The notes under the pieces: model-generated
Databases searched by the model: none
Told to the model about the DNA's origin: nothing
The model's input: only the letters and a program-made list of their open reading frames with translations
Program-made: the position numbers and the translations under genes
In this document: positions 2,136 to 57,566 of the stretch, in pieces
Numbering within the stretch: the first letter of the stretch is position 1
Layout of the letters: the number at the start of each line of letters is the position of its first letter
DNA from: an uncultured virus (IMG/VR IMGVR_UViG_3300012971_000927)
Lineage: Duplodnaviria > Heunggongvirae > Uroviricota > Caudoviricetes
IMG/VR virus record: IMGVR_UViG_3300012971_000927
Reading direction: 5' to 3' (one strand)
Length of the DNA: 64,000 nucleotides

Positions 2136-2165
2136 TTTACAACCCCTTCTTTTCCCCGGTAGAAT
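2136..2165 (+). promoter_or_regulatory. Sigma70-type promoter driving the repeat array and tRNA
   Basis: TTTACA(AC)-18 nt-TAGAAT; member of a motif recurring ~14 times in the window. Confidence 0.7.
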
Positions 2166-2207: not shown

Positions 2208-2633
2208 ACTTATCCCGCGATGAGCGGGACGGCGTGGAAGCTGGATCAGATGCCGGTCCACCGTTGTGGTATATCCCGCGATGAGCGGGACAGCGTGGAA
2301 GCAAGGTCTACCTTCCCAACAAGGTCGGCCTGACGGTATCCCGCGTGAGCGGGACGGCGTGGAAGTCAGGTGCCGGGGGTATATCGGCAGTGCATATCCC
2401 GCGAAAGCGGGACGGCGTGGAAGCACGACGGGCGCGGCAGTCATCCAGACAGGCCGTGGAGCATATCCCGCGATGTGCGGGACGGCGTGGAAGAACCACG
2501 CGAAGATCATGGCCGGTTTTGTTTTCCGGCAGGCATATCCCGCGATGAGCGGGACGGCGTGGAAGTAAGCCCCGATGGGCCATCGGCTAGGCCAGAGTTC
2601 ATATATCCCGCATAAGCGGGACGGCGTGAAATA
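2208..2633 (+). CRISPR. CRISPR-like mini-array with no cas genes in the window: 7 repeats, 6 unique spacers
   Basis: Consensus (GCA)TATCCCGCGATGAGCGGGACGGCGTGGAAG; cores start at 2211, 2272, 2337, 2395, 2464, 2536, 2604; internal hairpin TCCCGC/GCGGGA; spacers ~26-39 nt; last repeat degenerate (GTGAAAT). Confidence 0.7.
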
Positions 2634-2636: not shown

Positions 2637-2708
2637 GCCCCCATAGCATAATGGAAATGCGACGGCCTCTAAAGCCGATCTACGGGGGTTCGATTCCCCC
2701 TGGGGGCG
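2637..2708 (+). tRNA. Amber-suppressor tRNA (anticodon CUA)
   Basis: Acceptor GCCCCCA/TGGGGGC; D arm GCAT-AATGGAA-ATGC; anticodon arm CGGC-CT CTA AA-GCCG (anticodon 2669-2671); T arm GGGGG-TTCGATT-CCCCC; discriminator G; no encoded CCA. Confidence 0.88.
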
Positions 2709-2780
2709 CTATAAATCTGCTTTACAACCCGCAAGCAGGAACACTACAATAGGAAGGTGCAAAGAAGAGGAGGAACAGTC

Positions 2781-14625: not shown

Positions 14626-14655
14626 AGGGGAGGCTCGGCCTCCCCTTTTTTGTTT
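14626..14655 (+). terminator. Intrinsic terminator
   Basis: AGGGGAGGC/GCCTCCCCT stem plus T tract. Confidence 0.7.
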
Positions 14656-14667
14656 GAGGAGTCACCA

Positions 14668-16095: not shown

Positions 16096-16376
16096 AGATC
16101 GGGCCTTACAAGATCACCGGCGGTCCAAACTGGAGTTTCTTCTTGGCTACCGGGTTCTTCGCCTACCTGAGCTATGCCACATGGAGTGTCTGGCCCATTT
16201 TGGGATGGTTGGGCTTTTGTATCGCTCTCATTCCCATTTGCTTCTCGATGGCCAGGTGGGATCAGGCCCAGGAGGACCGCCGGAAACGCGAGCGCGAAGA
16301 AGAATTGGAGTCAATGAAGGAATTATTCAGGCGCAAACCGGGAGGGCATGATGAGCCTCGACAGGGGTTTCGTTGA
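16092..16376 (+). CDS. Small membrane protein
   Basis: Two hydrophobic helices; overlaps argS stop and tyrS start. Confidence 0.55.
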   Translation: MKIGPYKITGGPNWSFFLATGFFAYLSYATWSVWPILGWLGFCIALIPICFSMARWDQAQEDRRKREREEELESMKELFRRKPGGHDEPRQGFR

Positions 16377-20540: not shown

Positions 20541-21316
20541 GCCCACCCCTTGATGACCTGCATGAAACAATTCTTGCTGTCCACCTGGACCTGGGGGTAC
20601 AGTTTCTTATAAACCAAATGGCACACTAGCTGGTCATCCGTGTCCGCCTTGACACTCTGTAGCTCCAGGGCGTCGGTGCCGTAGCGGAGGCGAACCTGCT
20701 CCTCAAAAAACTCCTGCGTGGGGAACAACTGCCGCCAGTTCACCGCCGTGTATTCTGGCATAAAGCGCTCCCGCAGGAAGTCGGTGCGGGCAATGAACAC
20801 CCCGGAGTTTAGAAAGCACGCCTCGTCGGGCACCACTTGTTTCTCAAAACCATACGCAGAATGAAGCGGACCCAGGTGGGGCCAAAAGGTCTTTTCGCCA
20901 TTGAATATGATGCCGGCCTGGTCCTGCTGGCCAAACCACTTTACTAGGGGCCTCAAGTCATCCAGTACCAACACGTCGAAAGCATCCAGGCCGATCACGA
21001 ATCGCTGCTTGATATGGTCGAGAGCTTTGCCCAGCTTCGTGAACTTTTGGTAATTGGTCCACTGTTGCGGGTCGCCTTTGATCTCGTAGTACCTGATACC
21101 AAGCAGTTGCAGGCACTTTTGCAGCACACTCGTATTGTCGCTGGTGTTCCAGGTGACTATGGCCGTGTCAGGTGGGTTGCCGAGGGATCGCGGCTCCTCA
21201 GCGAAAAGAACCGAGCAAAGGTGGTGAAACAACTGCTCCAGGTCGGGGTGGAATCTCATTCCCGGTGCGTGGACGATGATCGGGGACGTATTGTAAATCA
21301 GGTTGTCGAATAACAT
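20495..21316 (-). CDS. PLOD/LH-type GT-A glycosyltransferase
   Basis: GLDAFDV, FNGEKTFWP, FLNSGVFI, DDQ motifs. Confidence 0.7.
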   Translation of the reverse strand: MLFDNLIYNTSPIIVHAPGMRFHPDLEQLFHHLCSVLFAEEPRSLGNPPDTAIVTWNTSDNTSVLQKCLQLLGIRYYEIKGDPQQWTNYQKFTKLGKALDHIKQRFVIGLDAFDVLVLDDLRPLVKWFGQQDQAGIIFNGEKTFWPHLGPLHSAYGFEKQVVPDEACFLNSGVFIARTDFLRERFMPEYTAVNWRQLFPTQEFFEEQVRLRYGTDALELQSVKADTDDQLVCHLVYKKLYPQVQVDSKNCFMQVIKGWAYEAFRIRPATVRPK

Positions 21317-22272
21317 TCCAGTTTCCTTAACCCTCTGGCCAGGCGTTCCGCAAACGTGTCCGCCGAATATTGTGCGTATGATTCTTGGGCAATTTGCCGA
21401 CTTCTGCCCTCATTATATGTGTTCCAGAATTCAACGATCATATCCGCACACAATTGGTCACTAAAGTACAGCGACAGCACTACGCCGTTCTGGAATTGCC
21501 TGGTGGTCAGGATGTTAAAGTTCTCGGCAAACGTGATTACCGGATGGCCCAATTGTAGGTTCTCGTACACGGAATAGCCGTGGGTTTCCTGGTGGTGGCA
21601 AAAGAACAGACTGGCGGACTTATAACCCTCGATAAGCTGGAAGTAAGGCATCCGGCTGGTGCTGAGGGTTTTGAAGGGCAAGTGCGGGTCGCCATGCGAA
21701 CAGAATGTGATGATCTTGAAGCCGCGCTGTTCCAGAATTTGACAAATGCGCACGGCTTTCATGTAACTGAAGACATGCTGAAGGGTATGGTCCTTCTCGC
21801 CCAGGGTGAAGCGGTGCGGCTCATCGAGGAAAATCATTGCTGTCTTGGCAAAGGGTGCAGGCTGGAGGTAGTCCTGCATCCCTCCCAGGGGCACCACCAC
21901 CATGCCCGGCGCATTTATTACATCCAGCACCGTATGGTAATACATTTTTTGGGGGTCGAACGGCTGTAAATGGTTGACGACGTATGCGTTGCCGGCCACC
22001 GTCGCCGCTCGTTCGATATACTTGGCCCAGGCCGAATAGAACAGGCAATTGGGCGGTAGGTCGGGAAAGTTCGGGTCGAAACAGAAATAATCGGACACCA
22101 GCACTGGCCCGTCCCGTGGACAGTCTTCGAGCGGGACCACCGGCACCCCGCCCTTCTTGGCCGCGTAATACCAGCGAGCCGCAAAGATGGCAAAGTCGGT
22201 GTGGTTTTTGGACAGGAAATCTTCCACCCCCATTGCATCGAGTTCATCCAGGTACGGAATTGCGAATCTCAT
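21298..22272 (-). CDS. Putative GT-B glycosyltransferase
   Basis: YKSASLFF...ETHGYSVYENLQLGHPVI (GT4-like ExFG..xxE motif). Confidence 0.55.
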   Translation of the reverse strand: MRFAIPYLDELDAMGVEDFLSKNHTDFAIFAARWYYAAKKGGVPVVPLEDCPRDGPVLVSDYFCFDPNFPDLPPNCLFYSAWAKYIERAATVAGNAYVVNHLQPFDPQKMYYHTVLDVINAPGMVVVPLGGMQDYLQPAPFAKTAMIFLDEPHRFTLGEKDHTLQHVFSYMKAVRICQILEQRGFKIITFCSHGDPHLPFKTLSTSRMPYFQLIEGYKSASLFFCHHQETHGYSVYENLQLGHPVITFAENFNILTTRQFQNGVVLSLYFSDQLCADMIVEFWNTYNEGRSRQIAQESYAQYSADTFAERLARGLRKLECYSTT

Positions 22273-22952
22273 ATAATCGGCCCGAAGATTTCCTTCGACA
22301 GTTCGTATACCTCGCGGTCACGCATCACCTTCTGAATGAATTCCTGGTCATCCGCGAATTCTTTCCAGCGATCCAGCACGGCCATCTCCTGTGCCCGCCC
22401 CTGATACTGCAACCCATCGAAACTGCTGCCTTCCCAATAGTGGGGGACAAAGTTCAGCATATCGTCGTTGGTCTTGGGCGCAAATTCTGTTGCCACCTTG
22501 CAGCGATACTCCCGGTCGCTGAACCAGGCATTGTAATTGACTTTCAGCACATCCGAAAGGATGGCGGGCCGCAAATATTCCCTGGCGAATAACTTCCACA
22601 GTAACACGTCTGAAAAGAAGATTAGCGCTCTCCCATCCAAGGCACGCTGTTTCTTGGTCCTGCTGGCGAACAGATTGTAGGGATCGCGGAGGCAGAGGAC
22701 GTGGCGGGCGGCGAGGGGTATCGGGGTCAGTTGTTCTTCAAAGGAGAATATGGCACAAGCTGGTCCTGGCTGCTGGCGGATTTGTGTTATTTCATTATTG
22801 TGGTATACTCCCGGCACCGGCGTGGCCATGTACCCTGGCAATGCGGAAAACTGGCAATTGTTATAATGCCAGACGTTGCCAAAGTGTGAGCCGATCCAGT
22901 AGAGGATGGGGTGGTGGCCGCTCCGACTCATACCGAACAATTGAAAATTCAT
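22269..22952 (-). CDS. Sulfotransferase-like protein
   Basis: GMSRSGHH (5'-PSB-like) and LRDPYNLFAS (3'-PB-like). Confidence 0.6.
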   Translation of the reverse strand: MNFQLFGMSRSGHHPILYWIGSHFGNVWHYNNCQFSALPGYMATPVPGVYHNNEITQIRQQPGPACAIFSFEEQLTPIPLAARHVLCLRDPYNLFASRTKKQRALDGRALIFFSDVLLWKLFAREYLRPAILSDVLKVNYNAWFSDREYRCKVATEFAPKTNDDMLNFVPHYWEGSSFDGLQYQGRAQEMAVLDRWKEFADDQEFIQKVMRDREVYELSKEIFGPII

Positions 22953-23746
22953 GACAGATAATTCCCCATATGGACCTTATTCTTTCCTTGGAAGTGCAGA
23001 GCGTGGAACTTTACAAGTCGTTGGAGTTTTGTGCTGAAGCAGTATGGCATTCCATCACGCATGACGATCTTTTTTCGCCCCTGGTCCATTTCAAAATACG
23101 CTCCCGGCAAGTTGATGCAGTGGTCATAGGTAGCGTCGTCAATAATGGTCATCATCTCCCCCACCTTGCCGGGTCCGCCGCCGACATGGGCATGGTAATG
23201 GAAGAAGTCGAAGTATGCCATGTCCGTTATGCCGCCGCCAAGGCCATGTTTGGTGCGGATGTGGTAATGCGAGGCTATCTTCTCGAAATCATAGCCATTT
23301 TGATTGCGGAAGGTGGCGACAAAAAAGGTCACGAACCGATCCAGGCCGGTTTTCGTGAAGAAGGAGCAGACCGGGGCGGCGCGGTGCGCGAGGGTGAGGT
23401 CGAACTGCTGGTATTTGGGCCATTCCTCATTAACGTTGACGTACAGCATCACGTCTGAGTCGATGTAAAAGACCAACGGCACGCCAGCTTGCTGCATGTA
23501 GTTCTGAAGTACCAGCCAACGTTGGAAGCAGAACAGACCGTAATCATACGAGTCGGTTGACAGGTGCGTGTAGGACTTCTGGAAGTCATCACAACCGCCC
23601 CAGCATGACTTTAGGTCGATATATTCGGTGTCGGCATTATAACGATGATCGCTGATGAGGACAACACGGTTGCGTTTGCGGGCCTCCTCCAGTGAATAGT
23701 TCAGGTAGGCGTCAAACCCCTGATGAATCAGCACGACGGGTATCAT
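22949..23746 (-). CDS. GT-A glycosyltransferase (DXD)
   Basis: CFQRW, FYIDSDVML, ITDM, LHFQGKNK. Confidence 0.65.
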   Translation of the reverse strand: MIPVVLIHQGFDAYLNYSLEEARKRNRVVLISDHRYNADTEYIDLKSCWGGCDDFQKSYTHLSTDSYDYGLFCFQRWLVLQNYMQQAGVPLVFYIDSDVMLYVNVNEEWPKYQQFDLTLAHRAAPVCSFFTKTGLDRFVTFFVATFRNQNGYDFEKIASHYHIRTKHGLGGGITDMAYFDFFHYHAHVGGGPGKVGEMMTIIDDATYDHCINLPGAYFEMDQGRKKIVMRDGMPYCFSTKLQRLVKFHALHFQGKNKVHMGNYLS

Positions 23747-25167
23747 AGAACATTTACGTTCGCCACTTGTTGGGCCACCTGGCGAGCCTGGTCCACCACG
23801 GTCTTGTCGAGACTGTAAATCGACATCCCCAGCCACAGGAAGGGCTTTTCCGGGTTGTGCAGCGTGATGCCGTGATAATCCCGGTGCGCATCGAAAACTT
23901 GTTTCAGGAAGTTGGACCCCCAGACGTGGCGCTGGTCCTGGTTATACATGACGGGGCCGGCGTGCTTCCCTGGTGGCATGGTATCATGGGCAATGATTGT
24001 TTTTACCTTGTGGTGCAGCAGCAACATGATCTCCCGGCTGACAGCAGGCAACGAATGGTCGCCGTCCACGAAGATCAAATCATACTTGCCGTCAATAATC
24101 TCCTCGGACCTGGCCTGGAGGAAGGTCACCGGATGCCGTTCGGCCATTTTGCGCACCTGGGGCTTGATGTCGATGTCACAAACGGTCAATGAGAAATTGG
24201 CACCGTGGTCCAGCGCGGCCAGGAAGGCGGCGGTTGAGTAGCCGTTATAACTGCCGATTTCCAGAACGTTGGAGTGTAGGCCGAGTTTGAGGATGTGGTA
24301 CAACACCATCCTCATTTCCGGGCCTACGGACCACCATGTATCCATCTCCGGGAAGGTAACGTCGGCCTGCAAGAAAGACGGACTCTCGTGCGGGGTGCTT
24401 TCGAGGCTGCTGTTCTGGCCGACGTGTTGTACCAACGAGTATTTCGGGGTAAAGATCGGGATGCCTTGGTCTTCAGCGAACTTATTCAAAACAATGTCTC
24501 CTTTGATTTCATCAGCGAAATCTTCCATCTGTAAAGCCTCCTTCCAGAATTGTTTCGTCCTTGCCAGGACGCGGTTAGGGTAATATATGCACTGCGTCCC
24601 CCAGAAACAGAGGTAGGGGAATAGGGAATAAGGTCGCGTGGTCCTGGTGGTTACTAGGGTGCCACTGTAGAGAGTCAGGAAATAGTCGTGATGGCGGTCA
24701 ACTTGCTCTATTTCGGTGATAATCCGCTCCATGTCGCCCTGCCAGGAGTCGCAGAAGATGGTGTCGTCCTCGACCACCAGGATATTATTGGACGACACGG
24801 ACAACGCTCTCAAGTAGTTGTGGCAGGAGAGCCAACTTACGGGTTGGTGCTTGATGGCCTCCCACTCATCGGCTCCGAGTGGGACGATGTGGATGCGGCT
24901 GTGGTGCCTATAAACCTCTAAATACCGAGCATCCGGCCTGCCCACGACGAGAAAAATGTCGCCATCCACGCCGTTCATCAGTAGGCTGGCCAGGGTGCGG
25001 TGTATGCCCTCCCTGGGGATTGTCACGATGGCGATGTCGGTGACGGGATAACGAGCGGGCGCTGGGGATTTGCCGACCGGGGGTGTGGTATCCTTGGGCA
25101 GTTTGCAGACCAGGCCGGTTCCCGGCACCGGGTTGATGTCCCTGGTTAGCAACCTGTGCTTCTTCAT
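23743..25167 (-). CDS. Glycosyltransferase fused to class I SAM methyltransferase
   Basis: N-terminal LVVEDD...VQHVG; C-terminal VLEIGSYNGYST, DLIFVDGDHS, IAHDT. Confidence 0.8.
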   Translation of the reverse strand: MKKHRLLTRDINPVPGTGLVCKLPKDTTPPVGKSPAPARYPVTDIAIVTIPREGIHRTLASLLMNGVDGDIFLVVGRPDARYLEVYRHHSRIHIVPLGADEWEAIKHQPVSWLSCHNYLRALSVSSNNILVVEDDTIFCDSWQGDMERIITEIEQVDRHHDYFLTLYSGTLVTTRTTRPYSLFPYLCFWGTQCIYYPNRVLARTKQFWKEALQMEDFADEIKGDIVLNKFAEDQGIPIFTPKYSLVQHVGQNSSLESTPHESPSFLQADVTFPEMDTWWSVGPEMRMVLYHILKLGLHSNVLEIGSYNGYSTAAFLAALDHGANFSLTVCDIDIKPQVRKMAERHPVTFLQARSEEIIDGKYDLIFVDGDHSLPAVSREIMLLLHHKVKTIIAHDTMPPGKHAGPVMYNQDQRHVWGSNFLKQVFDAHRDYHGITLHNPEKPFLWLGMSIYSLDKTVVDQARQVAQQVANVNVL

Positions 25168-25179
25168 GTGTTAAGTGAG

Positions 25180-25881
25180 CTAATACTGCTCGATTTTGAA
25201 ACCCTGGGGTTTGTTCCAGGCGTTATAGTGGATCAGGTCTTGCATGGCGGCGCTGAGGTATTCCGCAGTCAACTCGGCCATGCTGTAGTCGTTGCGCAGG
25301 TCGCGGACGATTTCGATTTGCATGGACTGAACACGGGGGTCCGCATAGTGCTTGCGGAATAACTGGTTCATGTTATTGCGGGTCCATCCTGACATCATGC
25401 CACCGGCCCGCCCCTCCCAGACCGTCAGGCCCGCCTGTTGCATAAGGAAAATAAAAAGGTCTTTTCGCCAAAGTTCGCAGCTATATGAAGCCGGCGTGCC
25501 AGCACCGTAGCCGATAATCATGTCAAGCTGGCCCTCGCCGGTTTTCTGGCGTATGTCGTTGGACATGCCGTGGATCATGAACATCAACATGCCGCCGTGT
25601 TTTTTCAAAATTCGGCTGCGAAAGCGCAGGATCGGGTCGAGAAACTCGTCCTTGACGACCTCCTCCATGTGGCTGAAGTTATTGCAGTCGGCTTTGTCGC
25701 TGAAGTAATCAACGTGTTCGCAACGTTCCCACCCTCGGTTGATGACGGCATAGCACTTCAGGACACCGGCGGCATGTTCGGCAACGTGATCGGTGTTCAC
25801 GTCGTCACATTTCGCCCCGTGCGGCGCGACCAGAAGGATCGGTGCTTTGCCTTCGATAATGCTGACACGTTCCGTCGCCAT
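25180..25881 (-). CDS. N-formylglutamate amidohydrolase/Zn-peptidase-like protein
   Basis: ILLVAPHG, MIHGM, SMQIEI; RBS AGGAGG before ATG 25881. Confidence 0.55.
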   Translation of the reverse strand: MATERVSIIEGKAPILLVAPHGAKCDDVNTDHVAEHAAGVLKCYAVINRGWERCEHVDYFSDKADCNNFSHMEEVVKDEFLDPILRFRSRILKKHGGMLMFMIHGMSNDIRQKTGEGQLDMIIGYGAGTPASYSCELWRKDLFIFLMQQAGLTVWEGRAGGMMSGWTRNNMNQLFRKHYADPRVQSMQIEIVRDLRNDYSMAELTAEYLSAAMQDLIHYNAWNKPQGFKIEQY

Positions 25882-25894
25882 ACCCCTCCTCATG

Positions 25895-27517
25895 CTATTT
25901 ATAGTTCAGCCGGCCAATCTTCCGATAGCAGAAAACCTCCCACTGGTATTTCTGGAGAAAGGACAGCGCATGGTCCTTTAATTGCTCGCCAAACTCGTGG
26001 ATGCACTCCTCCCAGCCGGTGGCCTCTAATATTGTATGCCACCACCTGCGCGGGCGGATGCAAACGTGGGTGGGGTCTTCTTTCTCGCCGTCGCGGTTCT
26101 GCCGGGCGAAAAGCTCCACTGTGTCATGGACCGAAAAAAGTACGGCACCTTGGACGCACACCCGGTTTAGTTCGCTCAACACAAAGGGCACATATTCGGG
26201 GCGAACATGCTCCAACGTTTGCATCAGGTGGACACCCCCAAAGCTCTGAGCGTCAAAAGGGTGTAAATTCGCGGCATCGCAGATGACGAGGGGTAGGTCA
26301 GGCCATTTGCTGCGGCCCAGATTGATGCAATACTCGTTCAGGTCGCAGCCCGTAGCAATGCAGCCGCCATCGCGGAACCCTTTGGTGAGGGCACCGCAGG
26401 CACAGCCCACATCCAGCACCTTCTTGCCCCGCCACCCCAGGCAGGCCGCGAGCCAATGCCCATAGTTTTGCTGCCAGTCGCCGTAGGAAGCATAATCAAC
26501 TCCCAGGGTCTTATGCTCCCAATAATATTGCTCACCGAAATGGGTACTCTGGAGGCGTTCCGCGTGCGCCATTGGGTTCAAATTCGGCACCCCGGCCCCT
26601 AGTTGTTCGCTGATTTCGAGCAGGACTCGCTGCCGAAGGTCGCTGTAGTATTTGAAACGATAATGCGTCTCGAAATACTTCTGCCCCTTGTCCCGCTCCT
26701 TGATTCTGATATTTCGACGTGCATCCTGGGGGATCAGGTGCATGACGTTTTTCGATAAATCGTAAAAGTTGACGGGGTGGTGCTTCGTCCAAATGCCAAT
26801 GGCTGGGGTCTGGGTCGCCCCAGCCACATGAAGCGGCCCCGAATCAATCCCCACGAAAAGGCAGCCGCGTGCGATGAGCGCAGCGATTAAAGCAGCGTCC
26901 CCCATGCCGCCCTTCCACATCGGCAATGCCGGGTCGGGGCAGAAGACCGTGCGTTGGTCAATTAGGGTGGACCGATGGTCGAAGTCGAGTATGATGGGGG
27001 TGTAGTGATTTTCCAGCAAATAATCGCAAATGCAGCGCACGTCGTCGTGGGAAAGATTCTTGTTGCGTGAGGACGAGTTTCCTTGGTAATGGATGAAGAC
27101 GTAGCCTTTTTTCTCCGGCAGCCCGGCAAGGTAGGCATCGGCGGTTCGGACGGAATGCGAGTCCAGAGTGATGGTGTAGGAAAACAGATCGGGGAGGGGT
27201 TTCAAATTAAAAACTTCGTACAAGCACCGGGTCACCTTGCCGCTCGGCAGGTCGTCATAACATACGTTGGCTTCGGGCCAGACAAGATGAAAAATCCGGT
27301 CGTAGTGCCCCTTCGCCGGGTTCTCGCGGGTGATCCAGACTTGGTGGCACAGGCCGTGGGCAACGCTGTGCTTTCCCCTGGCAAGCTCAACGTCAACCTG
27401 CCAGTCGGGGTAATAGTGGCGCAGGTGTTTGAGTATGACGGTAAGTTGTACCGCATCCCCCAGCCCGTGGAACTGACGGAGGAGAACCTTCAATATAGCA
27501 CCCCGCGAACCCCACAT
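25895..27517 (-). CDS. GT9 (heptosyltransferase-like) fused to SAM methyltransferase; exact start uncertain
   Basis: HGLGDAV, FVGIDSGPLHVAGA; C-terminal VLDVGCACG, LEHV. Confidence 0.85.
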   Translation of the reverse strand: MWGSRGAILKVLLRQFHGLGDAVQLTVILKHLRHYYPDWQVDVELARGKHSVAHGLCHQVWITRENPAKGHYDRIFHLVWPEANVCYDDLPSGKVTRCLYEVFNLKPLPDLFSYTITLDSHSVRTADAYLAGLPEKKGYVFIHYQGNSSSRNKNLSHDDVRCICDYLLENHYTPIILDFDHRSTLIDQRTVFCPDPALPMWKGGMGDAALIAALIARGCLFVGIDSGPLHVAGATQTPAIGIWTKHHPVNFYDLSKNVMHLIPQDARRNIRIKERDKGQKYFETHYRFKYYSDLRQRVLLEISEQLGAGVPNLNPMAHAERLQSTHFGEQYYWEHKTLGVDYASYGDWQQNYGHWLAACLGWRGKKVLDVGCACGALTKGFRDGGCIATGCDLNEYCINLGRSKWPDLPLVICDAANLHPFDAQSFGGVHLMQTLEHVRPEYVPFVLSELNRVCVQGAVLFSVHDTVELFARQNRDGEKEDPTHVCIRPRRWWHTILEATGWEECIHEFGEQLKDHALSFLQKYQWEVFCYRKIGRLNYK

Positions 27518-27846
27518 TCCTCGCAGGACCGTATTTCCAGGGGGTCATCGTCGTAATGAATTGCCGCCCCGTGCTTCACCAGTACAGGGCCTTTGGGCCG
27601 GTGGTTGGTGTACACGATCTGGGAAACCGGCAACTGATGTTCAGCAATAAAGGCCCGCACGCTCACGCGGCTGGGCCAATATTTCTTAATCCAGCTTCGC
27701 CGGTCATGGTGGCGATTCCGCGACGTGACAATGATAACGGTGTCCCCGGCCTGGTGGTGTTCGAGGAGCTTGCCCATCATGACAGGGTTGGCACCAGATG
27801 CAAACAGAAGGGTGTCGTCAAAATCGAACGATACGATCATATCCAA
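27490..27846 (-). CDS. Minimal HAD-family phosphatase
   Basis: SFDFDDTL, IVTSR, K, HYDDD motifs I-IV. Confidence 0.75.
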   Translation of the reverse strand: MDMIVSFDFDDTLLFASGANPVMMGKLLEHHQAGDTVIIVTSRNRHHDRRSWIKKYWPSRVSVRAFIAEHQLPVSQIVYTNHRPKGPVLVKHGAAIHYDDDPLEIRSCEECGVRGVLY

Positions 27847-28631
27847 CGGCTCCAGGGTTTGGGGTGGCCGGTAAAATGCAAAATCACGTCGGTGGGGTCA
27901 TAGTGGATTTTGTCAAAAAACTCGCCCTCGCTGGTGGCGTCACAGCCCTGTCTGGTAAACTTGTTCCAGGCCAAGGTGTCAACCACCGCCGATTCAAAAT
28001 GGCCCGCCGAGATCGCCCAATTCAAGCAACCTTCATCGAACCAGTATATCAGCGACCGGATGGCAGGGTTTTCCAAAGAAAGATTCACCATAAACATCCA
28101 CAAGGCCCGCAGGCGGTCATGCGCTGGGTCGCCCTTGATGAATCCCAGCACCCCGTTGTTGATAAGACCCCTTTTGTCTGCCTGCGGCAATTTGAAAAGG
28201 TCCATCAATTTCGGCTCGAACCACAACGCTTCGTTCCATTGGGGGTGCCGCACCAGCACTGGTCCCTCCCGCATCGCCGCGAACACCGGGTTCAAGTCCC
28301 CAACAACTATTGTATCCGGGTCGAGCCAGAGGCAATATTTGTAAGGGGCAACCGCAACGTAATATGGTTTATACCATGCGTGCCAATAATACAGGGATTT
28401 GTCGGGCCTCACAGGGTTCGGCAATACATTCACCGCTCGTTCCCCGCACCAGGCCCTTTGGTCGGCTGTCAGGCCCAGATCGACCACAGAAACGGGCACC
28501 CGGCCCCTTACCGAATCGCATAAAAGGCACAGACCTCCGAAATATGGCGCATCGCATCCGGTCACGATGCCGCTATCGGGGCACGTCACTGCCCACCACG
28601 GCATCCCGGCAAAAAACTCCTGCCGTCGCAT
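27837..28631 (-). CDS. GT8-like glycosyltransferase
   Basis: WLDPDTIV, INNGVL, DEGCLN, ILHFTGHPKPW. Confidence 0.8.
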   Translation of the reverse strand: MRRQEFFAGMPWWAVTCPDSGIVTGCDAPYFGGLCLLCDSVRGRVPVSVVDLGLTADQRAWCGERAVNVLPNPVRPDKSLYYWHAWYKPYYVAVAPYKYCLWLDPDTIVVGDLNPVFAAMREGPVLVRHPQWNEALWFEPKLMDLFKLPQADKRGLINNGVLGFIKGDPAHDRLRALWMFMVNLSLENPAIRSLIYWFDEGCLNWAISAGHFESAVVDTLAWNKFTRQGCDATSEGEFFDKIHYDPTDVILHFTGHPKPWSRWI

Positions 28632-32680: not shown

Positions 32681-33739
32681 ATGCTCGAAGGCATCGAAGC
32701 TGTTCGCCTGGAGAGACAGCAAGAAGTCAAGTGCCTGGCGGTGATGCGCACGGGCAACCCGCTCCGCGACGAGTGGAGCGTGTACCTCGGCCAGAAACAC
32801 GGACGAAAGTTTCGGGACGAGTTGTTCAACTATTACAACCCGAAGAAGAAAAGGGAGCAGCCTGAAGTCTACGGCCTGAAGCCGGGCCAGCTTCCCAACC
32901 CGTTCGGCTGCATCCCCGCCTTCCGCATGAACGAGTGGCGGCGCGATCTGCCCCTTATTCTGGCGGTGCGCGATGTAGAGTGGGACATGACCTGCTCTTA
33001 TATCAACTTGGCCAGGGACTTGGCCAACCGTTGGGCGCGGATGGCCCAGAGCAACGTCATGCTCACGCCGGATGTCTTCGGCCAGGAAGCCTGGATGGCG
33101 CTTCGCAACGCCATCTACGGCTACAGCAAGGAGAACATCGAGTTTTCCACCTACGCCACCCGCGTCATCCGCAACCATCTGCTGACGGTCTACACCAACG
33201 GCAGCCCGGCCCGCTATTTCTCCAGGGAGGAGCGGAAGCTGCTGAAGGAATTCAACCTGCGGCGCAGCCAGGCCGGCGACGACGTGCAGGTTGAGCAGAT
33301 CGCCCGCGCGATGGGCCTCAGCGACGACCAGATCACCAGCATTTGCAAGATGCTGGTCACCACGGTCAACTACTCCCAGATCGGGCGCGGCAAGCACCGC
33401 GACCTGCTGGACGAACACGACCATGACGTGACGGCGCTGCGGCACGGTGCCTGCCGTGACCGCACCGATACCCCGGAGATGTGCGCCCTCCAGCCGATGC
33501 TGGAGAAGCTGAAGCAGGCGCACCTGACCCCGTTCGAGGAAGACGTGTTCCTCACCAGCCTGCCGGGCTGCGACTACTACGGGTGGCAGTCGGACGTGGC
33601 CAGCCGCCACATCAACCCCCGGACCAACAAGCCCTACACGCGGGCCGGCGCTGCCATCGCCCTGGAAAGCGCCTACATTAAGTTGCGGCGGGTGGTGCGC
33701 CAAGACCCGTTCGACGGCTACAACGTGCGGAAGAAGTAG
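32681..33739 (+). CDS. Sigma-70-family RNA polymerase sigma factor-like protein
   Basis: Region 2-like QEAWMALRNAIYGY....EFSTYATRVIRNHL; region 3-like EQIARAMGLS; region 4-like C-terminus. Confidence 0.7.
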   Translation: MLEGIEAVRLERQQEVKCLAVMRTGNPLRDEWSVYLGQKHGRKFRDELFNYYNPKKKREQPEVYGLKPGQLPNPFGCIPAFRMNEWRRDLPLILAVRDVEWDMTCSYINLARDLANRWARMAQSNVMLTPDVFGQEAWMALRNAIYGYSKENIEFSTYATRVIRNHLLTVYTNGSPARYFSREERKLLKEFNLRRSQAGDDVQVEQIARAMGLSDDQITSICKMLVTTVNYSQIGRGKHRDLLDEHDHDVTALRHGACRDRTDTPEMCALQPMLEKLKQAHLTPFEEDVFLTSLPGCDYYGWQSDVASRHINPRTNKPYTRAGAAIALESAYIKLRRVVRQDPFDGYNVRKK

Positions 33740-40941: not shown

Positions 40942-41898
40942 ATGACCGAGAAAGCGAAAAAACTGAGCCAAAACGAGCTTCGTGAAGAAATCACCGAGCG
41001 TATTGTGGAGGCAATGCAGCGTGGCCTGCCGCCGTGGCGCGAGCCTTACCGCCGCGACCCGAATTCCGGCTTCCCCACGAACGTGATCTCCAGCAAGCGG
41101 TACACCGGCATCAACACGCTGCTGCTCACCGCCACCGCGATGGAGCGGGAGTACAAAAGCAAGTGGTGGGGGACGTATAACCAGTGGCACGCAATGGGCG
41201 CTCAGGTCAAGAAACGCCCCTCCAGCATCCGCGAGGGCGAGTGGGGCACCAAGATCGTCTTTTATCGCAAGATCGAAGACGATGAGTTGGACGCGAAGGG
41301 CGACCCGAAGCGCTATTTCTTCGTGTTGCGGTCCTTCACCGTCTTCAACGTCGAGCAAGTCGAAGGCGACCACCTAAGCATGTTCCGTGCCGGGGAGGAA
41401 TGCGAACTGGAAGACCGCTTCCTGGCCACGCTGACCTACGATCATGTGGATGACATGGTGGAGGCCACCAAGGCGAAGTTCGACGTAGGACCGGAGCCAA
41501 AATATCTGTACCCGCCCGCCGACAAAATCCTGATGCCCAAGAAGTCGCTATTCGTGGACCTGCGCAATTACTACGCCACCAAGTTCCACGAGTTGATCCA
41601 CTGGACGGAGCCGCGCCTGGGCTGGCCCAGCAAGCACCAGAATCTCCAGGGTGCCGATCTGGAGGCGATGGGCGAGTTGATCGCGGAGATCGGGGCTTGC
41701 TACCTGGAAACCGAGTTGCAAATCCCGCACAGCGAGGACATGACGAACCACCACAAGTACATCCAGACCTGGCTTCATGTGCTGCGCGGCAACCACCGCC
41801 GCATCTTTGAAGCCTCCCACCAGGCAACGAAGGCCGTGGATTTTCTGCTCGCCTTCAGCCGCCCTGTCACTAAGAAGGAGGACACCGACGATGAGTAA
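40942..41898 (+). CDS. ardC: ArdC-like ssDNA-binding antirestriction protein (DUF1738 plus zincin)
   Basis: PPWREP, YTGIN, WGTYNQW..MGAQVKK, FTVFNVEQ, FHELIHWT, ELIAEIGA. Confidence 0.9.
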   Translation: MTEKAKKLSQNELREEITERIVEAMQRGLPPWREPYRRDPNSGFPTNVISSKRYTGINTLLLTATAMEREYKSKWWGTYNQWHAMGAQVKKRPSSIREGEWGTKIVFYRKIEDDELDAKGDPKRYFFVLRSFTVFNVEQVEGDHLSMFRAGEECELEDRFLATLTYDHVDDMVEATKAKFDVGPEPKYLYPPADKILMPKKSLFVDLRNYYATKFHELIHWTEPRLGWPSKHQNLQGADLEAMGELIAEIGACYLETELQIPHSEDMTNHHKYIQTWLHVLRGNHRRIFEASHQATKAVDFLLAFSRPVTKKEDTDDE

Positions 41899-44136: not shown

Positions 44137-44601
44137 ATGATCGAATTTAGAAAAGGCAACATTTGGGACGCGAAGGATTTACAAGCCCTGGTCAACACGG
44201 TGAACTGCATCGGCGTCATGGGCAAGGGTCTGGCGCTCCAGTTCAAGTGTCGCTACCCGGCGATGTACGACGAATATGTGCGGGTCTGCGTGGAGGAAGC
44301 CCTGGGGCCGGGCGAAATCCTGGCGTGGGAGAACCCCAAGCCGCCACCGCAATATATCTTCAACTTCGCCACCAAGGGTGAGTGGCGTCAGCCCTCCCGC
44401 TACACCTGGATCGAGGACGGCCTTATCGACCTGGCCGTGCGGATTCGGACTTTGAAAATTAAAAGCATCGGCATCCCAGCCCTGGGCTGCGCCAACGGCG
44501 GGCTGGAGTGGGCCAAGGTGAAGTTGCAGATTCAAAGCGCCCACGACACCTTCTGGCATGACTGCCGGGTGGTGGTCTACGAACCCCTGGACGGCTCCTG
44601 A
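44137..44601 (+). CDS. Macrodomain ADP-ribosylhydrolase (DarG/Poa1p-like)
   Basis: KGNIW, LVNTVNCIGVMGKGLALQFK, IFNFATK, SIGIPALGCANGGLEW. Confidence 0.9.
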   Translation: MIEFRKGNIWDAKDLQALVNTVNCIGVMGKGLALQFKCRYPAMYDEYVRVCVEEALGPGEILAWENPKPPPQYIFNFATKGEWRQPSRYTWIEDGLIDLAVRIRTLKIKSIGIPALGCANGGLEWAKVKLQIQSAHDTFWHDCRVVVYEPLDGS

Positions 44602-45386: not shown

Positions 45387-45556
45387 CTTTACAACTGGCC
45401 TTTCCGGGCAGTATAATAGACCCAACGGCATCGGAGGCCGTGAGCCGCAAAGGACTTACGGCGAATCACGAAAATCGTGAACGCCTTTCGGAATCAGGGG
45501 CGGTAGAGTCGGAGGACTTTCACCCCGATACGACTGGCTTCTCGGAGGGTTCTGCG

Positions 45557-47842
45557 ATGGCCGTTTTCCCCAACAAGTACGAGAAAACCTGCAATGGTCG
45601 TGGCTGCGGCAAGCGCGTCCGCGTGGGCGAGGGCTTCATTCAGAAGATCAACGGCGGCTGGGTGACGTGGTGCCGGGACTGCTGCCCGGAACGCATCGCC
45701 CCGGCTGCCGCCCGTCCCGCTCCCCGCCGCGTGCTGACCGCTCAGGGCCACGTCCTCACGCCGTATGAGCCGGACAACCTGGCTCTGGTGCGCTCCTTCC
45801 CTGGGGCACGCTTCCACGGCAACAAGGACATTTGCCCCGTCTGCAACACCCGCCACGGCGAGTGTTTCTGGTCCGTGTCGCTGGCCCAGGCCGACCGCGA
45901 GCGCGTCCTTCAGATCGCGGACGAACTCAAGCTGGACGTTGCGCCCGAACTGCGCAACATCGTGGTGACCGAGCAGGCGCAGAACGCCACGATGGCGGGC
46001 CTGTACCCGTATCAGGTCACCGGCGTCAACTGGCTGTCCAAGCAGGACTACGCCCTGCTGGGCGACGAGATGGGTCTGGGCAAGACGATCCAGACGCTCG
46101 TGGCCCTGCCCAACAAGGCCCGCGTCCTGGTGGTCGCCCCGAACAGCCTGAAGTACAACTGGCGGGATGAAGCCGCCAAGTGGCGGACAGACTACACCTG
46201 CACCGTCATCAACGGCGGGGCCAACTTCCGCACGCCTCGCCAGGGCGAAATCCTCGTGGTCAACTACGAGTGCCTGCCCGACTTCCTGATGCCGCCCGCC
46301 CGCAAGAAGGGGAAGGGTAGCTGGCAGGAGAACGCCCGGCAGCTTCAGGCGCACTACGACATTCTGCGCAGCCAGCACCCGGACCTGTGTGAGTGCATCG
46401 TCGTGGTGGACGAGGCGCACAAGGTCAAGGGGATGGACACGCAGCGCGGCCAGAAGGTCTGCACGCTGACGCACATTTGCAAGAAGGGCTGGGGCCTGAC
46501 CGGAACGCCTCTGCTCAACAAGGCGCTCGACCTGTGGGGCGTCCTGGTCAACCTGAACCTGGAGCGGCGCGCCTTCGGGAACGCCCACGGCGAGTACGCC
46601 TACCCCAACTTCCAGCGTGCCTTCAACTGCACGAAGGAAGTCATCTGGGCGGGCCGGCGCAACGGCCACCGGGAAGTGTTGCAGTGGGGCGAGCCGACCC
46701 CGGAAGTCCCGGAGAAGATGCGGCGTGTCATGCTCCAGCGCAAGCGTACCGCCGTGCTGCCCGACCTGCCCACGAAGACGTACACCGAGATTCTTGTTTC
46801 GCTGGACGACGTTCCGGGCGCGTCCCACATCAAGAAGGAACTGGATAGTCTTTGGGGGGAGTGGGGCACCCTCATGGACGAAAAGGAAGACCTGCCGCCC
46901 TTCACGGCGTTCTCGCTGGTCCGCGAGAAGCTGGCCCGTCTGTGCGTGCCGGCGCTCATGGAGTACGTCGAGAACTGCGAGGAGCAGGAAGTCAACCTCG
47001 TGGTCGCCACCGCCCACCTGGCCCCTCTGGACGCCCTGCTGGGCCGCGAGGGCTGGGCCGTGATCTCCGGCGAGACGAAGCCGGAGGATCGGCAGACGAT
47101 CTGCAACAACCAGCGTGCGGGCCGGCTGCGGGGCGTCGGTTGCTCCATCACGGCGGCTGGCGTCGGCCTCAATCTGACCGGGGCGAGCCGCATGGTGTTC
47201 GTGGACCTGGATTGGGTTCCGGCGAACAACTGGCAGATGGAAGACCGCATCTGCCGTATCGGCCAGACGGCCAACAAGTGCGAGATCGTGCGGTTCGTGG
47301 TCGATCACCCGCTTTGCCGGCATATCCACAAGTTGTTGGCCAAGAAGATCGCCCTCATTGCCGCCGCCATCGACGGCAAGGCCCAGGCCACGGTGCCCAC
47401 GGCTCCGGTCGCTCCTGCCCGCCAGGGCGAGAGCGAAGAGGAATTCGCTGCCCGCATGAAGCGGGTGGCCGAGGCGGAAGCCGAGTACGACCGGCAGCAG
47501 GCCGAGAAGCTGGCTGCCGCCGCCAAGGCCGAGGGCCAGGCCAAGGCCAAGGTTGTCCTTGAGCGGGAGGCTCGCAACGCCAAGGGTACGACCCGTTGCA
47601 TCCTGCCTCTCACCCCGGAGCGGATCGACGCCGTGCGGCGGGCCTTCAAGTACATGCTGTCGGTCTGCGACGGCGCTCATGCCAGGGACGGGCAGGGCTT
47701 CAATAAGCCTGACGCGATTTTGGCTCACCTTGTCTTGAGTTCCGGTTTGGAGCAGCCGGACGAGTTGAACGCGGCCTACTGGATGCTGACCCGCTACCAC
47801 CGGCAGCTTTTCCAGCGCGAACCGTTGCTTTTTCGCAGCTAA
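45557..47842 (+). CDS. SNF2/SMARCAL1-like helicase with N-terminal Cys-rich domain
   Basis: LGDEMGLGKT, VVDEAH, LTGTP, GVGLNLT, QMEDRICRIGQ. Confidence 0.92.
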   Translation: MAVFPNKYEKTCNGRGCGKRVRVGEGFIQKINGGWVTWCRDCCPERIAPAAARPAPRRVLTAQGHVLTPYEPDNLALVRSFPGARFHGNKDICPVCNTRHGECFWSVSLAQADRERVLQIADELKLDVAPELRNIVVTEQAQNATMAGLYPYQVTGVNWLSKQDYALLGDEMGLGKTIQTLVALPNKARVLVVAPNSLKYNWRDEAAKWRTDYTCTVINGGANFRTPRQGEILVVNYECLPDFLMPPARKKGKGSWQENARQLQAHYDILRSQHPDLCECIVVVDEAHKVKGMDTQRGQKVCTLTHICKKGWGLTGTPLLNKALDLWGVLVNLNLERRAFGNAHGEYAYPNFQRAFNCTKEVIWAGRRNGHREVLQWGEPTPEVPEKMRRVMLQRKRTAVLPDLPTKTYTEILVSLDDVPGASHIKKELDSLWGEWGTLMDEKEDLPPFTAFSLVREKLARLCVPALMEYVENCEEQEVNLVVATAHLAPLDALLGREGWAVISGETKPEDRQTICNNQRAGRLRGVGCSITAAGVGLNLTGASRMVFVDLDWVPANNWQMEDRICRIGQTANKCEIVRFVVDHPLCRHIHKLLAKKIALIAAAIDGKAQATVPTAPVAPARQGESEEEFAARMKRVAEAEAEYDRQQAEKLAAAAKAEGQAKAKVVLEREARNAKGTTRCILPLTPERIDAVRRAFKYMLSVCDGAHARDGQGFNKPDAILAHLVLSSGLEQPDELNAAYWMLTRYHRQLFQREPLLFRS

Positions 47843-47869
47843 TCGGCTAGAGTGACCTGGGTGGGGCGG

Positions 47870-47906
47870 GCATATCCTGACCCCCCAGGTCGGGACGGCG
47901 TGGAAG
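47870..47906 (+). repeat. Solitary variant copy of the array repeat
   Basis: GCATATCCTGACCCCCCAGGTCGGGACGGCGTGGAAG: same flanks (GCATATCC ... CGGGACGGCGTGGAAG) with a different, longer hairpin. Confidence 0.8.
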
Positions 47907-48018
47907 AAGGATGAAATCGACCGGATGCGGTGGTTGCCCATCCTGAACACCCCGCCTCACCGCCCCCGCGCCAAAAGGCGGGGGCGGGTTTGTTTCCAGC
48001 CCCAATCTGGTTAGTACG

Positions 48019-48058
48019 ACGCCGCAGCCCCGGTTTTTCGCCGGGGCTGCGGCGTTTT
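48019..48058. terminator. Strong GC hairpin/terminator
   Basis: CGCCGCAGCCCCGG/CCGGGGCTGCGGCG plus TTTT; second hairpin at ~47960-47995. Confidence 0.7.
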
Positions 48059-48134
48059 CCTTTACAACACCCCCTATCCTGCTATAGAATTAGCTTGGAG
48101 AGCGTGAATTCCTTCCTCCTGACAAGGAGCCGAC

Positions 48135-48997
48135 ATGAATGACCTGGACCAGTACGACGTGCTTGTGAGGGAACGTGACGGGCGTGGCGTTCGCGCCCGC
48201 ATGGGGCCTTACACCAAGAAGCAGGCCGACAGCATCGCCAAGTTCACCAAGAACTACCCCACCGAGGTTGTCGAGCATGATTCCGACGCCTGCCGCAAGG
48301 CGAAGGAGGCGAAGGCCAATGGCGCTAACACTTGACCGCCTTCGCAGCCTTACGACACAGGCGCACGCCAGGGCCGAAGCAGCCCGCACCGTTTCCGAAC
48401 AAGCCGCACAACAGAAGGCCAGGCAACGGGCCAAACGCCACCGTTTGCTTGCCGATCAGATCGTTGAAAGAATCGAGCTTCGCGCCGAGAAAGCCGCGCT
48501 GCGCGAAGAGCGGGAATGCGTGGTCATGCGCCTTCGCAACCCCCGCGACTATACCTACGCTGCCCCGGTACGGCCAGAAACCCTGATGGGGGTCGCCCGG
48601 TTGGTCTGGGACGACTTGGCCCATTTGCCGCTTCATCTCCGCGAGTGGGATGACGGCGTGGGCATCAAGGGCGGCTGGGACATCGTGCTGCAATGGTAAT
48701 ACATAGCAGCAGCTTCAACAACAAGGAGAATCCATGAGCAACCCCGCTACGACGGCCAAACCGCATCACTACCAACTGCGGGACAAGGCCAAGAACACCT
48801 TCCTCACCTACGACGACCTGTTCCCCGACCGCGAGGACGAGACGCACGGCGATCAGGTGGCGATGTGTCTGGAGGAGGAGAAGGCCCACGACCTCCGCTT
48901 CAAATATGAGCAGGAGTTTCGCCAGGTGGGTGCCGATGAAATCGAGATCGAGGTCGTCGCCTTCTCTGCCGCCGGGCATGAGATCGGCGTGTCGTAA
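48135..48997 (+). other. Three small hypothetical ORFs (48135-48335, 48319-48699, 48734-48997)
   Basis: RBS AAGGAG/GGAGG; promoter at 48061-48090. Confidence 0.55.
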
Positions 48998-49081
48998 TAT
49001 AAGAACCAGGACCGCCAACCCCAGGGAAAGGAGCGATCAATGTGCATCTGCATTCCGCCCATAAAGAACAGGAGCGCCACC

Positions 49082-49639
49082 ATGAGACGCCATGTCAAAA
49101 CCCCGCCCAAGTTCGTGATCCTCGCGCTGGCCGATGAGTTGTCATTCGCGGACGCCGCCGACCTGATCGGGGTCCACGAACGCACCTTCTCCAAGTGGTA
49201 TCACCACGCCCTGCCCGACATCGAACACCGCTCCGGGCCGCGCCCCATCGAGCCGCCGCCCAAGCGCAAACTGCTCGCCATCCTGCGCACCCACAGCAAC
49301 CAGGAAACCGCCGACTATTTCAGTGTCGGCTATAAAACGCTCGCTCGCTGGTTACGCGAGTATGAGATCGAAGACCGCCTGTTCGACCAGGATGAAATGA
49401 TCTCGCTGGCCGAAGCCGCCCGCACGATGAACGTCAGCCGCATGGCGATGAGCAACTGGTTCCGTGCGGGCCTTATCCCCGGTGCGCGGAAACTCAATGG
49501 CACCAGGGTCATGGTGCCGGCCTCCAGCCTCCAGACTCTCCAACTGTGGCGCAATCAAAACGACGGCGAGCCGGTATATAACGCCGGCAGCACCTACCGT
49601 CGTTCCGCCGCCCTGGCGCTGCCGCAAGAAATCACCTGA
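49082..49639 (+). CDS. Multi-HTH DNA-binding protein (excisionase/MerR-like C-terminus)
   Basis: FADAADLIGVHERTFSKW, ETADYFSVGYKTLARW, LAEAARTMNVSRMAMSNW. Confidence 0.7.
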   Translation: MRRHVKTPPKFVILALADELSFADAADLIGVHERTFSKWYHHALPDIEHRSGPRPIEPPPKRKLLAILRTHSNQETADYFSVGYKTLARWLREYEIEDRLFDQDEMISLAEAARTMNVSRMAMSNWFRAGLIPGARKLNGTRVMVPASSLQTLQLWRNQNDGEPVYNAGSTYRRSAALALPQEIT

Positions 49640-56311: not shown

Positions 56312-57566
56312 ATGGCAAAGGCACGGATGCGCTATGTCTGGAAACCCAAGTGGGCCGACTTGCCCAAGGAACTGCCCAAGAATATAACGCGGAAGGAACT
56401 GTTGTCCGCCGAAGACGTGGTGGACATATTCCTCCGCAACCATTACTACTGGTTCACCGACCCCGACAACACCATGTACGACCAGAAGCCGGCGTACCGC
56501 ACCCTGCTGCTGGAATATCTCAAGAACGGCGAGCAAATCCCCGGCCTGGACTATTCCGCCGTGTACGCCATCGGCAAATTCAACAACGAGTGGCTTTTGC
56601 ACTTTGAAACGAGGCTCGTATGAACGAAGACGTGACCCACCTGGAAACCCTGATCCGCGACGGCAAGACCGAGGAGGCGCTTGCCCTGGTCGCCCGCATG
56701 AAGGAAGCCTTCAACACCAAAATCCCGGAGGGGCAGGCTCTCAACCCGGTCACCATCCGGGGCGTGCTGACTCGCGGCAGCGCCGACCCGGTAAACATCA
56801 CCCTGGGCCGGCTGTGGCTGTCCGAGAAGGACATGCGCCCGCCGGACAGCAAACCCACCACCCTGTCCAAACTGTGGCAAAAAGGCAATGACAAGGCCCA
56901 GCAAGGCCAGGCCGAGGGCATCGAGAAGTGCTTTAGCGTGGTAGTCTGGTGCGGCCCTGACAAGTACCCGCAGCCGCTCGCCACCGGCATCTTTGACGAG
57001 GACAAGATCATCGAGGCCCTGCGCCTCCTGTTTCCCAAGGGCGAGTTGATGGACAAATGGATTCTGGTCCAAAACGCCCTCAAGAACTTGCTTATGGGAT
57101 TGTAGTTTACAACCCCAAGTCCCAGGGGTAAAGTAACGTGTCCTTCGGAGCGATCACCATGAGCAAGCAGTCCTTCAACGCCGCCACCGTGCCCTGGTAT
57201 GCCCACCCCGACACCAAGCCGGTGCGCCCCAGATCGCCCCGGCCCCTGCCCGAAGACGTGCTGCGCGACAAAATCCGCAAGGGCCGCTACATCCAGGCGC
57301 TCTACAATTGGGTGCGGGCCAACTGGCAGGAAGGCGACTACTTCTTCATGCTCCCTTCCGCGCCCAGCCACTCCCAATATAACATCGCCAGCCGCTACGG
57401 CATCTTCCGCTCCATGAAACCCCAAGGGGCGATGTCGCGCATTTTCGTGGAGTGGCTGACCGAAGGACACAACATCAACCCGGAAGTCACCACGTTTTAT
57501 AAACACGCGGTCAAACTCGACGCCGAGGGCGAGCCAGTGGAGTTGCCGCCGGTGGAAGTCAAATGA
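56312..57566 (+). other. Three hypothetical ORFs (56312-56623, 56620-57105, 57159-57566)
   Basis: Coupled ORFs. Confidence 0.6.

Follow-up and report, generated by a model that had tools for sequence, protein, structure and literature searches.

The locus analysed here raises the question of what a single hairpin-forming repeat does directly behind the gene of an SNF2-family helicase, when the seven other copies of the same repeat stand together in an array 45 kb away in the 64-kb stretch of DNA that we studied (hereafter the window). The sequencing runs with this DNA are soil metagenomes, and we take the element itself for a large mobile element, probably a huge phage. Solitary CRISPR repeats on phages have been catalogued in thousands, and some of them are proven RNA anti-CRISPRs. 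An earlier note on this DNA had proposed either such a solitary unit or an undescribed RNA motif.

A solitary repeat in the 3′ untranslated region of a helicase gene

The lone unit, at 47870-47906 on the + strand, is the eighth copy of the repeat whose seven-unit array occupies 2208-2632 (Table 1). Its sequence and coordinates in the earlier note proved exact to the base, including the helices AGGATG (47908-47913)/CATCCT (47939-47944) and ACCG/CGGT behind it. The hairpin of the unit has an 8-bp stem (-14.7 kcal/mol). When the window was searched for ATATCC-N(8-20)-GGGACGGCGTGGAAG, a pattern suggested by the same note, four matches were obtained (three array units and the lone unit), with none in 100 shuffles. 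A covariance model was then seeded with 22 other units, the lone unit being excluded, and run over the window with filters off. It returned exactly eight strong matches, namely the seven array units (38-48 bits) and 47870-47906 (30.5 bits, E 1.2e-7), while the next-best match in the window reached 13.9 bits (E 0.066). The 30.5 bits are meaningful for a 64-kb search only, since scores near 30 bits were also seen at collection loci preselected by the exact tail pattern from hundreds of billions of bases. Beyond the score, the identical GCATA flank adds further support for membership in the family.

Table 1 Positions of the lone unit, the orphan array and neighbouring features in the window
Feature	Coordinates	Strand	Remarks
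Sigma-70-like promoter of repeat array	2136..2165	+	
Orphan 7-unit array	2208..2632	+	same repeat as lone unit
tRNA, anticodon CTA (reads UAG)	2637..2709	+	Rfam tRNA 64.6 bits (2637-2708); ARAGORN
ArdC-like anti-restriction protein, zincin peptidase domain	40942..41898	+	Pfam ArdcN 1.1e-31, MPTase-PolyVal 5.9e-27
DarG-like macrodomain protein	44137..44601	+	PADLOC DarG 1.9e-59; Pfam Macro 1.1e-13
Sigma-70-like promoter TTTACA-18-TATAAT, before SNF2 gene	45388..45417	+	11/12 consensus matches
SNF2-family helicase ORF, longest reading	45440..47842	+	true start perhaps a later ATG
Lone unit, 5′ flank GCATA	47870-47874	+	
Lone unit, 5′ arm TCCTGACC	47875-47882	+	
Lone unit, loop CCCCA	47883-47887	+	
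Lone unit, 3′ arm GGTCGGGA	47888-47895	+	
Lone unit, tail CGGCGTGGAAG	47896-47906	+	
Spacer-like self-folding 42-nt segment	47907..47948	+	outer helix AGGATG/CATCCT, inner ACCG/CGGT
Intrinsic terminator 1	47960..47996	+	10 G-C pairs, then GTTTGTTT; terminator scan
Intrinsic terminator 2	48018..48062	+	17-bp stem, then TTTTCC; terminator scan
Promoter of next operon	48061..48090	+	before 66-aa ORF 48135-48335, more small ORFs and HTH protein 49040-49639

The lone unit combines constant flanks with a changed centre: all 23 of 23 flank positions agree with the array consensus, and in an alignment with the nearest window repeat (A1) 26 of 37 columns are identical (70%). Measured against the array stem TCCCGC/GCGGGA, pair 6 is changed on both sides (C-G to A-U) and is the sole such pair, pair 4 has become a U-G wobble and two C-G pairs have been added. 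The description of this hairpin as compensatorily rewired thus stands in so far as a different, longer stem still pairs; given one two-sided change, one wobble and two additions, it is better termed re-paired and lengthened than wholly rewired.

The unit starts 27 nt past the stop codon of the helicase ORF, which ends at 47842. The ORF product carries the Pfam domains SNF2-rel_dom (1.1e-23) and Helicase_C (5e-10), matches the DNA helicase family phrog_62 (1e-65) and is ZorD/DpdE-like in PADLOC. No promoter-like site was found between 47843 and 47869, the nearest one upstream of the lone unit being that at 45388-45417. With a stop codon before it, no intervening promoter and terminators behind it, the lone unit is most simply part of the 3′ end of the helicase transcript; it sits in the 3′ untranslated region of the SNF2 gene, before two terminators, and we infer that it is co-transcribed with the helicase mRNA. 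The predicted RNA fold of 47860-48062 comprises the 8-bp hairpin of the repeat, the one behind it and the stems of both terminators, with a minimum free energy of -117.4 kcal/mol (z = -5.78) that none of 200 shuffles equalled. By the terminator scan, these two terminators span 47960-47987 and 48018-48056. In one soil run (X6), two identical 151-nt pieces lie over 47779-48083. The operon beyond the terminators encodes a multi-HTH protein (49040-49639), and its 66-aa ORF (48135-48335) had no usable match in the protein atlas.

Upstream of the lone unit stand the genes of the ArdC-like protein, an HNH protein, the DarG-like macrodomain protein and the SNF2 helicase, and the lone unit ends this cluster. 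No known acr gene adjoins it.

The segment that follows the repeat (47907-47948) contains a 38-nt hairpin and folds with -15.2 kcal/mol (z -2.71, p 0.007 against 300 shuffles). The proposal that the functional unit is the repeat together with a downstream hairpin draws some support from this segment (z -2.7) and from array spacer 2 (z -3.7). It is weak nonetheless: 5 of the 7 segments do not fold in this manner, only 2 of 7 downstream segments in the window beating their own shuffles, and the 52 spacers of the related array described below average z -0.32. The stronger idea that every spacer is a hairpin was rejected on the same two-in-seven count.

The seven-unit array of the window is an orphan. 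All its stems are TCCCGC/GCGGGA, the loops being GATGA (three times), GTGA, GAAA, GATGT and ATAA, and its spacers are irregular (28, 32, 26, 37, 39 and 35 nt; periods 58-72). The last repeat, 2601-2632, has the degenerate tail GTGAAAT; 4 nt past it the tRNA begins, with no terminator between, and the array promoter is common to both. ARAGORN labels this CTA tRNA as Pyl. Of 81 gene calls, 12 stop at TAG, and the standard code gives a coding density of 85%; no sign of TAG recoding is thus visible in the window. PADLOC gave no Cas model match in the 86 ORFs of the window, the Csb2 of the related contig serving as a positive control that worked. Likewise, no Cas or NCBIfam match was obtained for 5 ORFs near the array, and no cas gene was found in 3 small ORFs further upstream, which are covered by a second contig (L271). 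The genome of the element beyond these 64 kb may encode Cas proteins of its own.

The repeat family and type I-G CRISPR-Cas

Relatives of the repeat were sought by pattern scans of genome_contigs and metagenome_contigs, which gave at least 120 loci each, and 240 listed loci were examined. Among these, the real relatives were two metagenome contigs: L271, which is the same element (99.975% identical over window positions 1-3942), and L275, of which 6.3 kb of a 38-kb contig were examined. The scan pattern required GGGAC and the L275 consensus is of the AGGAC type, so arrays like that of L275 were caught by luck only, and further relatives may exist beyond the loci listed.

One of the ORFs of L275 encodes a full-length Csb2, the Cas5-Cas6 fusion by which type I-G is defined (TIGR02165 1.2e-56, 192.9 bits against a cutoff of 45; PADLOC Cas56g 7.4e-83), with 31-33% identity to the best sampled bacterial Csb2. 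This gene, the one cas gene within the DNA examined, is separated by about 220 nt from a downstream array of 55 units of the repeat family. Among the nine csb2-proximal units, seven share one sequence (TCATATCCTGTGCCCAGCAGGACGGCGTGGAAG); later units retain ATATCC and GGACGGCGTGGAAG, with nearly every stem or loop different yet paired. The leader-proximal periods, between the first six identical units, are 73, 73, 73, 72 and 70 nt, the distal ones being mostly 67-70, and by the boundary rule the spacers measure 36 nt in 32 of 52 cases (range 36-43 nt). The L275 array lies at 1048-4703 on the minus strand, with no cas1, cas2 or cas4 between csb2 and array. At two places in it (4028-4059/3993-4026 and 3369-3406/3344-3370) the gap between successive repeats shrinks to 0-1 nt.

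For comparison, three bacterial csb2 loci were taken: the array of each has a repeat of 36 nt recurring every 71-75 nt, and 12 nt ending in ATTGAAGC follow its hairpin. The family tail of the lone unit, CGGC plus GTGGAAG plus one variable base, has the same layout of 4 + 8 nt after the hairpin. This layout agrees with the type I-G system of Thioalkalivibrio sulfidiphilus, where, according to the accessible text of PMC9638904, Csb2 cuts 4 nt 3′ of the hairpin to leave an 8-nt handle, remains on the cleaved hairpin (KD 43 nM) without binding the handle, co-elutes with Cas7 on pre-crRNA and holds the 3′ hairpin of the crRNA. Because a 55-unit array adjoins csb2 and because its 72-73-nt period and 4 + 8 tail match those of bacterial I-G arrays, the repeat is, on sequence grounds, a type I-G CRISPR repeat. 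As in type I-G CRISPR-Cas, the family has csb2 as its neighbour on L275, its repeat measures about 36 nt, and the handle ends in GAAG(C), comparable to ATTGAAGC of the three bacterial arrays. Unlike such systems, the window has repeats without cas genes, the hairpin sequence is hypervariable inside one array, and the array of the window is itself irregular (periods 58-72).

A new structured RNA motif unrelated to CRISPR, the other suggestion of the earlier note, is thereby contradicted: the same repeat forms a 55-unit array with regular spacers directly behind csb2. An Rfam search returned no known family for the repeat at the gathering threshold, the sole match in the window being the tRNA at 2637-2708, which would suit a new motif; given L275, we hold such a motif to be extremely improbable.

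The handle of the lone unit is intact, and those of the two array-terminal repeats are degenerate, reading GTGAAAT in the window (2601-2632) and GTTGATA in L275 (1048-1079). In units 2392-2423, 2461-2493, 2533-2565 and 47870-47906 the opening GC dinucleotide is complementary to the GC within the tail's CGGC, a possible extension of the hairpin across an internal loop that reaches exactly to the predicted Csb2 cut site; the units of L275 are mostly without this pairing.

Other searches gave no relatives. Blastn in distant mode against the phage collection, with 1800-3300 and 47300-48700 as queries, produced no match, and protein relatives of SNF2 or Csb2 were absent from viral_contigs. The 15-mer GGGACGGCGTGGAAG occurs there at 75 loci, with one match each and none with a hairpin, and these were dismissed as chance. 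ATATCC-N-GGACGGCGTGGAAG matched a single locus of viral_contigs (L316), with a 3-bp stem and 28 bits; it was rejected as a family member, since its score is no better than that of loci preselected by pattern, and so were the tail-preselected loci L231 (30.1 bits), L286 (25.6), L110 (24.8) and L084 (23.2).

Variation of the hairpin

The family comprises 63 units, 8 of them from the window and 55 from L275, and 49 distinct hairpins occur among them, all of which pair, with stems of 6 bp in 44 cases and a range of 4-8 bp. That 49 distinct hairpins should all pair supports selection on RNA structure. In the model-fitted alignment, which leans towards structure, all 319 of 319 cells are standard pairs (100%). 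Pair 4 is U-A in 37, C-G in 16 and U-G in 3 units, and pair 5 is G-C in 47 and C-G in 2. The observed covariation score was 0.188 against 0.105 in shuffled data, and 0 of 500 shuffles reached the observed value. In a control without the fitted alignment, pairing of 6 or more positions between a hairpin's own two arms was seen for 37 of 48 distinct hairpins, compared with 1196 of 2256 combinations of arms from different units. The covariation is real and rests mainly on one pair, and the variety lies mostly in the loop. The claim of the earlier note that covariation points to selection on RNA structure is therefore upheld by the complete pairing, the switches at pair 4 and the shuffles. Fixed across the family are the stem base TCC/GGA, the 5′ ATA and the 11-nt tail, everything between them being free if pairing is kept.

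Possible roles of the lone unit

The lone unit is a solitary CRISPR repeat, a Racr candidate of type I-G, and such I-G repeats have already been catalogued. The reading as a solitary repeat unit acting as an RNA anti-CRISPR, put forward in the earlier note, holds as a lead, since the repeat is of the type I-G kind and no cas gene was found in the window. We put it at a little short of an even chance that the lone unit is such a Racr-like element, co-transcribed with the helicase gene, bound or cut by Csb2, and competing with real crRNAs. In the mechanism that we propose, the unit would be transcribed as part of the helicase mRNA, and its hairpin would be bound by the Cas6 domain of a type I-G Csb2 belonging to the host or to another element in the same cell. 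The cut by Csb2 would fall behind 47899, 4 nt 3′ of the stem (that is, after CGGC), at a site placed only by analogy with the system in the accessible text of PMC9638904, and Csb2 would stay on the hairpin afterwards. The 3′ product would comprise the intact 8-nt handle, the self-folded 38-nt body and the terminator, and both products would occupy Csb2 and Cas7 in useless complexes that compete with real crRNAs. The orphan array would act in the same manner at a higher dose, with seven hairpins per transcript. The nearby ArdC and DarG-like macrodomain genes count in favour of this decoy reading.

The comparison with known RNA anti-CRISPRs is close in several respects. According to the accessible text of PMC10651486 (Camara-Wilpert et al. 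2023), RacrIC1 shares a transcript with acrIC5, which it follows after 11 nt, and RacrIF1 sequesters Cas6f and Cas7f, a non-targeting crRNA having the same effect. Like the solitary repeat units of that text, ours is a lone intergenic repeat on a mobile element with no adjacent cas gene and near anti-defence genes, and, as with RacrIC1, it stands directly behind a gene on the same transcript. Unlike them, it coexists with a seven-unit orphan array of its own repeat. SRUFinder, as described in the same accessible text, accepts candidates that reach 90% in both identity and coverage against a known CRISPR repeat, whereas the lone unit is 70% identical to the nearest window repeat (the comparison here being with window repeats), because its stem is replaced and its flanks are kept. 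As regards the location that SRUFinder asks for, the unit is intergenic (stop codon at 47842 to promoter at 48061), with no repeat within 100 bp and no cas gene found. Candidates for testing had to have their own promoter within 250 bp in the procedure given there; the lone unit has none within that distance, the nearest upstream being 45388-45417. About 25 type I-G solitary repeats are catalogued in the accessible supplement of PMC10651486 (file 3 has 50 occurrences of ‘I-G’ in two columns), and its supplement text, so far as accessible, holds no match to the repeat tail GGCGTGGAAG. The candidates tested were of types I-F, I-E, I-C and V-A, with no I-G test found in the accessible parts.

Viral Cracr arrays are similar in being repeat-like phage units with short or odd spacers, sometimes stacked, that act via host Cas proteins; in the accessible part of the preprint (bioRxiv 10.1101/2024.10.29.618823), the defining feature of Cracr, CreA and CreR elements is a minimum of 9 PAM-proximal matches to the CreA or CreR spacer, and the types reported are V-A, I-F, I-E, I-C and I-B, not I-G.

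Arrays on large phage-like elements, as treated by Al-Shayeb et al. in 2020, are reportedly often without adaptation genes. With such huge-phage systems L275 shares a csb2 followed directly by the array, which does not make L275 or the window a phage, and the lone unit differs from them in being no array.

An alternative of lower standing, unlikely yet deserving serious weight, is that the locus encodes a one-repeat guide or regulator: after the Csb2 cut, the handle plus about 36 nt would load into type I-G Cascade, either as a crRNA against competing elements or as a Cracr- or CreR-like repressor of a cas or toxin promoter by partial pairing. The intact handle of the lone unit, set beside the degenerate handles of the array-terminal repeats, speaks for it. 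According to the accessible text of PMC9638904 the handle is dispensable for Csb2, so its preservation hints that the RNA behind the lone unit loads like a crRNA; a crRNA-like RNA in loaded form, be it guide or regulator, would explain the handle no less well than a pure sponge. A terminator could set the 3′ end of this RNA, and the three short spacers of the array (26, 28 and 32 nt) recall the Cracr pseudo-spacers of the accessible preprint text (bioRxiv 10.1101/2024.10.29.618823). Against it, no target was found: spacer matches to the window and to the 6.3 kb of L275 were all of 11-19 nt, which is chance level, the two 18-mers of the segment gave 3 and 1 viral matches with none beyond 18-21 nt, and the phage collection was without a match at E 1e-5. 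Moreover, the downstream segment is strongly self-paired (z -2.7) and thus poor as a guide, which makes guide use look unlikely, and there is no second repeat behind it that could supply the 3′ hairpin bound by Csb2 in a type I-G crRNA (PMC9638904, accessible text).

That the unit is a relic of array recombination or decay with no present function we consider improbable. It is present in single copy, and in one soil run (X3) diverged SNF2 relatives lose similarity at 47824, before the unit, as a relic would allow; positions 47846-48381 are without cover there, however, which leaves that run uninformative either way. Decay is hard to square with 0 changes in 23 flank positions beside a wholly different, perfectly paired 8-bp stem, with a handle that is intact, unlike those of the terminal repeats, or with a position neatly between stop codon and terminators. 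Slightly less probable still is a plain mRNA processing site without any anti-CRISPR role, at which the element's own or the host's Csb2 would cut the helicase transcript and leave a protein-capped 3′ hairpin. Such a site would be placed as the unit is, in the 3′ untranslated region 27 nt past the stop codon and without its own promoter, and Csb2 does stay bound to the cleaved hairpin in the accessible text of PMC9638904. Yet two strong terminators already define and protect this 3′ end, and the 64 kb contain a single gene with a site of this kind.

Returning to the decoy reading, we also looked for a partner system in Acidobacteriota. Among 401 sampled genomes none showed a repeat array bearing this tail; scattered single tail matches occur in 99 of the 401, with a maximum of 3 per genome, on different contigs or far apart. 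Csb2 was present in 17 of 301 sampled genomes (27-39% identity) and in 0 of 5 genomes with chance pattern matches. The Csb2 and tail tallies include an unpublished genome (G054), on which none of our claims depends. A variant of the decoy reading, to which we give only a small chance, would direct the decoys against a type I-G system carried by rival mobile elements such as L275, in a warfare between elements and not against the host, and hairpin diversification would then be adaptive. If so, the 49 hairpins among 63 units might keep long arrays from recombination collapse or escape decoys, and Csb2 would read only the TCC/GGA stem base and the tail.

The interest of the lone unit lies in its hairpin-diversified repeat family. 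One element with a seven-unit orphan array and a lone unit, in which the stem is replaced and every flank base kept, makes an unusually clean test object, and the 55 variants of L275 beside csb2 amount to a natural mutational scan of Csb2 requirements. Both could be of use in planning binding studies, in designing type I-G arrays free of repetition, and in improving finders so that they detect diverged solitary repeats, which a 90% identity cut-off would pass over.

Some further features of the window were observed. A weak repeat-like match at 57173-57202 (-), GCATA-CCAGGGCACGGTGG-CGGCGTTGAAG (13.9 bits, E 0.066), is antisense within a + strand ORF, with just 3 bp of stem paired, and may be a chance match or a decayed unit. 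Genes for an ArgRS-like protein, a TrpRS/TyrRS-family protein and a GT20 trehalose-6-phosphate synthase stand side by side (14623-17502, 17415-18902), followed by a glycosyl-/methyltransferase block on the minus strand (20495-28631), and the window also encodes a ParB-like protein and a sigma-like protein (32681-33739). The promoter module CTTTACAAC...TA-AAT (TTTACA-18-TAnAAT) precedes many + strand genes (32592, 40880, 42095, 45376, 55123 and others), as well as the array, at 2136, and, at 48061, the operon that follows the lone repeat. Another module, AAAATCG(T/A)GAAC followed 12-13 nt later by (C/T)(A/G)GGGG(C/T)G, occurs in five + strand copies (29377, 31289, 37771, 45471 and 52211), each with a variable, partly self-pairing middle and about 45-80 nt upstream of an ATG; it could be a promoter for the sigma-like protein of the element or a leader RNA element, and one copy falls in the 5′ end of the longest SNF2 reading.
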